From the NCBI GenBank assembly GCA_965215185.1, contig OZ244034.1:736001-800000 (forward strand): a DNA stretch of 64,000 bases. The letters are read 5' to 3'. Source of the DNA: Acidimicrobiia bacterium. GTDB taxonomy: Bacteria > Actinomycetota > Acidimicrobiia > Spongiisociales > ZC4RG35. A program made the position numbers and the translations under genes. A model generated the notes under the pieces. It was given only the letters and a program-made list of their open reading frames with translations, made no database searches and had not been told where the DNA came from. Positions within the stretch are counted from its first letter, which is position 1; every line of letters starts with the position of its first letter. This document shows, piece by piece, positions 17,290-18,516 of this stretch.

Positions 17290-18516
17290 TACAGAAAAGG
17301 GGGTGTTTGGTTGTGGGTAAGGTGAGGTTTGAGCGGGTGAAGCCGCATTTGAATGTGGGGACTATGGGTCATATTGATCATGGGAAGACGACGTTGACGG
17401 CTGCGATTACGCGGGTGTTGTCTGAGCGGGTTGGTGGGAGGAATGTGTTTACTGGGTTTGATGATATTGATCGTGCTCCTGAGGAGCGTGAGCGTGGTAT
17501 TACGATTCAGATTGCGCATGTTGAGTATGAGACTGTGTTGCGTCATTATGCGCATGTGGATATGCCGGGGCATGCGGATTATATTAAGAATATGATTACG
17601 GGGGCGGCTCAGGTGGATGGGGCGGTGTTGGTGGTTTCGGCTGTGGATGGTCCGATGCCGCAGACGCGTGAGCATGTGTTGTTGGCGCGGCAGGTGGGTG
17701 TGCCGCGGATTGTGGTGTTTTTGAATAAGTGTGATTTGGTGGATGATGAGGAGTTGTTGGATTTGGTGGAGTTGGAGGTTCGGGATTTGTTGACGGAGTA
17801 TGAGTTTCCGGGTGATGATGTTCCGGTGGTGAGGGGTTCTGCTTTGCGGGCGTTGGAGGGTGATGTTGTGGCTGGTGATGGTGTGATGGAGTTGATGGGT
17901 GTGGTGGATGAGTATGTGGATATTCCGGTTCGGGATATGGAGCGTCCGTTTTTGATGCCGATTGAGGATGTGTTTTCGATTACTGGTCGGGGGACGGTGG
18001 TGACTGGTCGTGTGGAGCAGGGGGTGTTGAAGGTTGGTTCGGCTGTTGAGGTGGTGGGGTTGCGTGAGACGCGTGGTTCGGTGGCGACTGGTGTTGAGAT
18101 GTTTAGGAAGTTGTTGGATGAGGGTCGGGCTGGTGATAATGTGGGTGTGTTGTTGCGGGGGGTGGGTAAGAGTGAGGTGGAGCGTGGTCAGGTGTTGGCT
18201 GCTCCGGGTTCGATTTTGCCGCATGTGGGGTTTGAGGCGCAGGTGTATGTGTTGACTAAGGAGGAGGGGGGGCGGCATAATCCGTTTTTTTCGGGTTATC
18301 GTCCTCAGTTTTATTTTCGTACGACTGATGTGACGGGTTCGGTGGTGTTGCCGGGTGGTGTGCAGATGGTGATGCCGGGTGATAATGTGGAGTTGTCGGT
18401 GGAGTTGATTGCTCCGATTGCGATGACGGTGGGGTTGGATTTCGCGATTCGTGAGGGTGGTCGGACTGTGGGGGCGGGTCGGGTCACCAAAATCACCAAA
18501 TAACCCCCAAACCAAA
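17288..18516 (+). repeat. Copy 1 of 1,229-bp direct repeat (tuf plus short flanks), extreme G/T skew
   Basis: Matches 53269-54497 at a constant offset of 35,981 from AATACAGAAAAGGGGG to TAACCCCCAAACCAAA; sense and antisense translations identical. Confidence 0.95.
17313..18503 (+). CDS. tuf: Elongation factor Tu, copy 1 (str operon)
   Basis: [43 protein letters not shown] 17313 after SD AAGGGGGTG. Confidence 0.97.

Follow-up and report, generated by a model that had tools for sequence, protein, structure and literature searches.

GRINS (genetic repeats with intense nucleotide skews) were defined by Nivina et al. 2021 as sequences duplicated over more than 500 base pairs (bp) whose GC and TA skews exceed 0.15 in mean absolute value, calculated in windows of 150 nucleotides (nt) with a step of 30 nt. 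As the main text of that paper describes them, the skews are strongest at third codon positions, glycine and valine are enriched, overlap with transposases is frequent and the skew may change abruptly, with G+T and C+A blocks inside 1 kb of one strand. Their mechanism is stated there to be unknown, and the ideas put forward are tautomer-driven error-prone synthesis and gene conversion. In this study we describe a repeat of this type which comprises the two tuf genes, coding for elongation factor Tu (EF-Tu), of an Acidimicrobiia bacterium (GenBank assembly GCA_965215185.1). Both copies lie in a 64,000-nt stretch of contig OZ244034.1 (positions 736,001 to 800,000), hereafter called the window, and in both the coding strand passes abruptly, close to the 3' end of the gene, from codons ending in G or T to codons ending in A or C. 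Two other well known phenomena have to be considered next to GRINS: the tufA and tufB genes of enterobacteria, which reportedly evolve in concert by gene conversion, and the excess of G and T that replication and transcription leave on leading and coding strands.

The two copies of the repeat are identical over exactly 1229 bp, as determined by exact extension of identity, and are offset by 35981 nt (Table 1). Identity begins 25 nt upstream of the GTG start codon and stops 13 nt past TAA; copy 1 is located between fusA and rpsJ, copy 2 between the genes for tRNA-Tyr/Thr/Met and rpmG. Third positions of the 397 tuf codons, the stop included, are occupied by G 229, T 160, C 5 and A 3 times. G or T ends 389 of codons 1-390, the sole exception being TTC at codon 377, and codons 391-397 then read GTC ACC AAA ATC ACC AAA TAA, every third base being C or A, and are followed by a 13-nt stub of the same two letters. 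An earlier note, made from the letters of the window, had reported this switch of codons and flank at 18483-18516 and again at 54464 in copy 2, and the letters at 18483-18516 and 54464-54497 read exactly so. In the G/T block (G 508, C 139, T 366, A 172) GC skew amounts to +0.57 and TA skew to +0.36; the respective values for the A/C block (G 0, C 13, T 3, A 17) are -1.0 and -0.70. The lone C-ending codon of the G/T block, codon 377 (18441-18443), is kept in 7 of 12 genomes of the genus and is TTT in the others.

Across the flip the G+T fraction falls by 0.71, when 150 nt to the left are compared with 35 nt to the right, and the genome-wide standard deviation of this contrast is 0.10. Among ~3.12 million positions of the genome this is the largest drop, and the next unrelated site reaches 0.55. 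Window contrast was used for scoring; an earlier strict segmentation gave no such sites, since codon positions 1 and 2 interrupt the runs. The tuf gene is also the top outlier for G/T-ending codons, with a fraction of 0.975-0.978 and a mean of 0.489 (standard deviation 0.072) for the 9556 open frames of the 3.12 Mb genome that are 120 codons or longer; the entry ranking after it is a low-complexity tract. The tail alone is less exceptional, because six terminal A/C-ending codons are found in 84 of 2440 crudely called genes, a set from which tuf itself was left out by the third-position GC filter of the gene caller, and pure A/C runs of at least 13 bases number 615 in the genome. The tuf flip is therefore unusual by its contrast with the gene body and by its conservation in relatives, and not by the tail alone.

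For comparison with GRINS, skews were computed on blast-defined repeats with our own implementation, not with the pipeline of the GRINS authors. The tuf repeat, 1229 bp long, present twice and 100% identical, has a mean absolute GC skew of 0.56 and a TA skew of 0.36, the highest skews among 137 repeat intervals of at least 500 bp, of which 54 fall within the numeric GRINS definition. The two skews are correlated, sharing a plus sign in the G/T block and a minus sign in the A/C block, 389 of 390 codons carry G or T in third position, the amino acids have shifted towards the favoured alphabet (31 of 42 fixed replacements raise G+T and 3 lower it), and the sign change at 18484 is the sharpest in the genome. 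With the elements characterised in the main text of Nivina et al. 2021 the repeat thus shares a duplication longer than 500 bp, GC and TA skews that are intense, correlated and highest at third positions, a shift to glycine and valine, and abrupt G+T and C+A blocks. Their association with gene conversion is probably shared too. GRINS are common in Actinobacteria and in transposases, and this genome has skewed transposase repeats as well. It differs in its carrier, which is an essential two-copy housekeeping gene instead of a multi-module synthase or a mobile element. Unlike the recent, cluster-specific GRINS of that account, the tuf skew is saturated (389 of 390 codons) and conserved over the genus and beyond, and its A/C block is only ~33 nt long and ends at the homology border. 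Neither 'tuf' nor 'elongation factor' occurs in the main text of that paper, whose supplements may list tuf. Full-text literature searches gave no report of this case, either on tuf combined with skew, where only the GRINS paper was returned, or on later GRINS work. As far as these searches reach, the tuf repeat is of a kind known since 2021, and this member and its fine anatomy are new. What is new is the confinement of the pure A/C alphabet to the stretch common to both copies and the clustering of sharp flips at repeat borders genome-wide.

The limits of the two alphabets were followed in the genus. In 16 other genus genomes, searched at E ≤ 1e-100 (the genome of the window is designated G000), tuf was found in 12, with two copies in 11 of them and one partial copy in G010; the four without a match are fragmented assemblies. 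All 12 have the G/T-only body and the A/C tail, mostly of ~4-12 codons and of ~20 in G010, whose overall G/T value of 0.83 is lowered by N-containing sequence in a 5' part extended by mistake. The non-coding stub common to both copies, 0-30 nt per genome in 11 genomes of the genus, contains G or T at 1 of 97 bases, and the unique flank behind it at 216 of 660 (33%) in the first 30 nt and at 210 of 660 (32%) in the next 30 nt. The sequence of the stub varies among species and its A/C alphabet stays constant. The opposite bias which the earlier note had assigned to the right arm is hence a real block of opposite polarity and more than an absence of bias. In G002 and G011, where the identity of copies ends within the tail, there is no pure A/C flank and one copy in each genome has a tail of the G/T type. 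Differences between copies lie at this margin: the last 22 nt of tuf hold 6 of 6 in G002, 5 of 5 in G011, 2 of 2 in G005 and in G032, 2 of 7 in G030 and 1 of 6 in G008. The pure A/C alphabet belongs to the homogenised unit, and both alphabets are confined to homogenised DNA.

In genus genomes whose copies share sequence beyond the stop codon, the flip is located 22-50 nt inside the 3' homology border, and copy identity starts 17-25 nt upstream of the start codon in genus relatives. A switch point fixed at about 30 bp from the repeat end had been proposed earlier; its closeness to the 3' border stands, its fixed position does not, since it ranges over codons 365-391 by lineage. The border of the alphabets is found at about codon 365 in L020, L038 and L071, at about 375-380 in L024, L085 and L091, at about 385 in G011 and at about 390 in the remaining genomes of the genus. 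Within each of 16 genomes the copies match fully or almost so, and between species 16-25% of the fourfold sites of tuf are different. Such identity within genomes and divergence between species is what concerted evolution would lead one to expect, and conversion may act between the copies. The locus resembles enterobacterial tufA/tufB in its str-operon and tRNA-tufB contexts, in the near-identical coding region and in identity ending near the gene ends. To our knowledge no two-letter alphabet or strand skew marks the enterobacterial genes, and in these two features the present pair would differ from them.

In comparisons of G000 with nine genus species, G/T swaps constitute 88-100% of the differences at the fourfold sites of tuf, the low end of 88% belonging to G011, which has a longer A/C zone. 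Fourfold sites of fusA differ at 37-46%, with every substitution type. The free sites of tuf are therefore not frozen, but move inside a two-letter alphabet, and the two-alphabet pattern is old and persists through heavy synonymous turnover. Contigs of four RNA libraries from close relatives also cover tuf, and in three of these four runs G/T swaps predominate among the positions at which the contigs depart from the window. The protein follows as well. Between the genus and five unskewed relatives, two of them (G027 and G038) unpublished genomes on which comparisons with unskewed relatives partly depend, there are 42 fixed amino-acid differences, and 31 raise G+T at codon positions 1 and 2, 3 lower it and 8 are neutral; typical examples replace Thr by Val, Ile by Val and Lys by Arg. 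Codon selection, already considered a misfit in the earlier note, is unlikely, as replacements obey the same alphabet and fusA is unaffected, with ordinary third positions (C 278, G 269, T 137, A 92). Weaker G/T bodies (0.77-0.95) are present in further families of this order as well as among other Acidimicrobiia, with two copies in 4 of 5 such genomes checked.

The sign of the G/T block agrees with the genome-wide leading-strand skew: tuf lies on the leading strand, in which G and T are both abundant, and origin and terminus are placed near 2.54 Mb and 1.10 Mb, respectively. Yet GC skew is 0.57 in the G/T block and mostly 0.0-0.2 in the other 1-kb bins of the window, the limits are sharp and coincide with homology borders, and the sign reverses within the gene, none of which is like replication or transcription asymmetry. 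Transcription is further disfavoured by fusA, which is probably on the same transcript and carries no such bias. A simple replication rule was tried and rejected: where the plus strand leads, 300-nt windows of strong skew number 11450 for G/T and 2014 for A/C, where the minus strand leads they number 4396 and 4696, and the sign is not simply mirrored by replichore. Neither process alone fits, as had been argued before.

The simplest alternative dispenses with an opposite drive. The tail would be the part of tuf that the G/T process never reached, made of ancestral C-rich codons and followed by the ordinary A-rich leader of the next gene. Several observations agree with this. GTC, ACC and ATC occupy the tail codons in unskewed and weakly skewed Acidimicrobiia, the last 30 codons of unskewed relatives are likewise rich in C, their codons 366-390 having just 10-60% G/T third positions already, the unique flanks are low in G+T too (24-36%), and the tail of copy B in G002 is largely of the G/T type, so that an A/C tail is dispensable there; the 84 genes with six terminal A/C-ending codons point the same way. 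The earlier note had named shared terminal codons in unskewed relatives as what would speak for plain ancestry, and for these three codons they are indeed shared. Other features go beyond ancestry: both lysine codons of the tail are AAA here and AAG in unskewed relatives, residue 395 has changed from Leu/Ile/Val (xTC) to Thr (ACC), and the stub common to both copies is pure (1 of 97 bases G or T) as opposed to 33% in the adjoining unique flank. In addition, codons 381-390 have 0 of 10 G/T third positions in L020 and L038, compared with 10-60% in five fully unskewed relatives. On this balance we regard a tail formed without an opposite drive as unlikely.

Selection at the level of RNA is another possibility, in which the A/C tract would be a Rho loading site, the descending arm of a 3' hairpin or a pairing partner of the 5' leader. 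The tract has no G and 13 C, the G-free run extends over 38-39 nt, it keeps its composition while the letters themselves change, the genome has a gene for Rho, and there is no intrinsic terminator-like site after either tuf copy. Moreover, C-rich, G-poor tracts follow some ordinary genes too; the genes trailed by A/C-rich tracts are ordinary metabolic ones and a transposase, not a highly expressed class. Rho loading (rut) sites consist of C-rich, G-poor, unstructured RNA of about 70-80 nt, and 33 nt is shorter than that typical size. Duplexes of leader and tail have the same energies as duplexes with shuffled tails, and in each of 17 loci the best partner was a stretch other than the leader. 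Any tract of A and C can pair with whatever is rich in G and U. In stability the local fold does not exceed shuffles (z = +0.6 and +1.3), and when 22 aligned sequences were folded together, compensatory change was seen in 1 of 23 pairs, with a covariation term of -0.41 and an unpaired stub; the features of an intrinsic terminator or a conserved 3' hairpin were accordingly not found in either analysis, and there was no match in Rfam. Two runs of one study among the four RNA libraries yielded contigs which pass through the tail into the flank, a weak argument, as contigs cannot show RNA ends. Finally, the pure alphabet does not extend past the repeat border, and copy B lacks the tract in both G002 and G011. 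A selected RNA element appears quite improbable to us.

The geometry of the blocks could also be produced by a recurrent double-strand break at the flip, followed by resection both ways and deamination (C to T, A to G) of the 3' single-stranded tails. Such tails leave the top strand on the left of the break and the bottom strand on the right, which matches the polarity of the two blocks; the flip is extremely sharp, and a minimum of homology needed for the right arm would fit the 22-50 nt found. The switch point, however, takes positions between codons 365 and 391 in different lineages. Over 1.2 kb the left block does not decay, and at the 5' homology border it stops abruptly, whereas resection would enter fusA. 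The substitutions disagree too: G/T swaps, which form 88-100% of synonymous differences, are transversions and not a deamination spectrum, and 8 of the 31 replacements raising G+T occurred by transversion, e.g. Glu to Val and Asn to Leu. This explanation is very unlikely, and the fit to resection suggested in the earlier note is weakened by the sharp 5' limit of the left block, which a gradient of resection would not predict. The interpretation as a mirrored bias given there is partly supported, for opposite polarity and the link to repeat ends hold and a fixed break point does not.

That link, a check of which the earlier note had recommended, was examined for the whole genome. A repeat border is no more than 50 nt away from 15 (megablast) or 21 (unmasked blastn) of the 40 sharpest flips, compared with 2.1% and 3.0%, respectively, of random positions. 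Some of these border-near flips are trivial ends of low-complexity tandem tracts, and most are at the border itself, the tuf flip being 33 nt inside.

The purity of the stub, the differences between copies at the 3' margin and the flips at repeat borders together favour a real block of opposite polarity tied to the repeat. We propose that the flip is an internal boundary between two skew blocks of opposite polarity in one GRINS-type repeat, brought about by a conversion-linked compositional drive, and we give this explanation about an even chance. The unit kept identical between the tuf copies would consist of the 1185-nt block, in which every free position of the coding strand is filled by G or T, and the ~33-nt block, in which A or C fills it up to the 3' homology border. 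As the probable cause we consider a compositional drive coupled to gene conversion between the copies, with one mismatch class or one strand preferentially processed in the heteroduplex. The winning DNA strand would set the alphabet, and close to where homology ends on the 3' side the winner would change. Certain codons of the tail (GTC, ACC, ATC) could at the same time be ancestral C-ending usage never overwritten by the G/T drive.

Several facts weigh against this proposal. The arrangement is asymmetric, for the G/T block comes within 3-11 nt of the 5' border and the flip keeps a distance of 22-50 nt from the 3' border. Judged from the codons of relatives, about half the tail would be ancestral usage which the G/T drive did not overwrite, and selection may act on tail composition. 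In G028 and G036, with G/T-ending fractions of 0.95 and 0.90, the shared 71-80 nt past the stop are mixed in composition, and the A/C block is therefore not always a companion of the G/T block. The link between copy number and skew is weak: four relatives with less than 50% G/T-ending codons showed one copy each, all in fragmented assemblies and three of the four copies at or within ~250 nt of a contig end, and G030 has two tuf copies and a G/T-ending fraction of only 0.565. Other skewed repeats of this genome change sign more gradually and mostly at the border, not inside. The numeric GRINS threshold is also lenient, as the rRNA operon passes it too.

A candidate for the processing activity is NucS/EndoMS, the enzyme of non-canonical mismatch repair in Actinobacteria, which according to Takemoto et al. 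(NAR 2018, PMC6159521) cleaves only G/T, G/G and T/T mismatches. The keto partition of these substrates is the same base partition as that of the tuf blocks. NucS is encoded in this genome, in which no MutS or MutL domain was found. If conversion-linked drive depended on NucS, keto mismatches (G/T, G/G, T/T) would be recognised in the heteroduplex of the repeat and A/C, A/A and C/C ignored, so that the spread of an allele to the other copy would depend on the strand carrying it into the heteroduplex. A slight preference for one strand in the transfer, amplified by large population size, might then lead to a pure two-letter alphabet in which G/T swaps are neutral, as is the pattern of tuf, and the flip would be the place near the 3' homology end where the preferentially transferred strand changes. 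The position of the flip, at 97% of the unit, could not be derived from a simple symmetric model, and the role of NucS therefore stays hypothetical. A full-text literature search found no link between GRINS and NucS, and we consider it doubtful that this enzyme is the engine of GRINS.

Coordinates of the features are collected in Table 1.

Table 1. Features of the tuf repeat and its surroundings, in coordinates of the window
Feature	Position	Strand	Basis and remarks
fusA (EF-G)	14962..17289	+	Pfam EF-G domains; stop 23 nt upstream of tuf start
Repeat copy 1, 1229 bp, 100% identical to copy 2	17288..18516	+	identity extension
A-rich 5' edge of the repeat (AATACAGAAAA)	17288..17298	+	8 A in 11 bases
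G/T block, 1185 nt: Shine-Dalgarno-like GGGGG, GTG start, codons 1-390, base 1 of codon 391	17299..18483	+	composition
tuf copy 1 (EF-Tu), 396 amino acids and stop, GTG start	17313..18503	+	Pfam GTP_EFTU, D2 and D3 domains
A/C block: bases 2-3 of codon 391, codons 392-396, TAA, 13-nt stub CCCCCAAACCAAA	18484..18516	+	composition; reaches repeat border
Unique spacer upstream of rpsJ	18517..18588	+	A-rich, 36% G+T, not pure A/C alphabet
rpsJ (ribosomal protein S10), third positions ordinary	18589..18900	+	Pfam Ribosomal_S10
tRNA-Tyr, tRNA-Thr, tRNA-Met, upstream of copy 2	52958..53246	+	ARAGORN
Repeat copy 2	53269..54497	+	contains tuf copy 2 53294-54484, G/T block 53280-54464, A/C block 54465-54497
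rpmG (ribosomal protein L33), downstream of copy 2	54557..54748	+	open reading frame listing; Pfam Ribosomal_L33

Within both tuf genes there is a promoter-like site (18252-18281 and 54233-54262) with TTGACT, an 18-nt spacing and CATAAT, 10 of 12 positions matching. It is made of codons dictated by the G/T alphabet (Leu TTG, His CAT, Asn AAT) and could drive the downstream rpsJ or rpmG. Long antisense open frames extend across the copies, at 17268-18614 on the minus strand (448 amino acids) and at 53243-55420 on the minus strand (725 amino acids), because A is absent at sense third positions. An antisense gene as the cause of the pattern was rejected, since G/T swaps at sense third positions are frequent and yet non-synonymous in the antisense frame. 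In relatives outside the genus (L024/L124, L026/L126, L027/L127 and L022) tandem repeats of 6-7 nt directly follow the tuf stop within the first 30-70 nt. Their unit differs by lineage, in G032 even between the two copies of one genome, and a tract of like kind occurs in two matches from Acidobacteria.

Elsewhere in the genome, a repeated gene for 567 amino acids without a Pfam match (L137; G000:C1:1087790-1089496, minus strand; copy near 1093372-1094414) is A/C-rich on its coding strand, with 25% G/T-ending codons, and its skew peaks at the 3' end and the 3' flank; it is a mirror of the tuf body, with the polarity of the tuf tail. Two sharp A/C-to-G/T flips at genome positions 1603801 and 883439, each at most 14 nt from a repeat border, have a common junction motif, TAGGAGGCTGCTGAGTA, followed by a G/T-rich low-complexity stretch. 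A cluster of G/T-rich IS110-like transposase gene fragments, in antisense orientation, was noticed at 370873-372217, with several copies elsewhere in the genome.

Where tuf serves as a marker in Acidimicrobiia, caution is advisable in analyses of codon usage, phylogeny and selection. The tuf pair is approximately the simplest natural GRINS case, with two copies of an essential gene for a well-known protein, a saturated skew that is genus-wide, and a single sharp sign change 33 nt from a homology border resolved to the base. It sets constraints for any mechanism of GRINS: neither alphabet stays pure beyond the homology border, G and T replace each other freely where A and C are kept out, the amino acids change in line with the alphabet, and the switch point shifts from lineage to lineage. 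If NucS proved to be the engine of these repeats, the tuf genes of Acidimicrobiia would offer a natural record of how bacterial gene conversion is polarised by strand.

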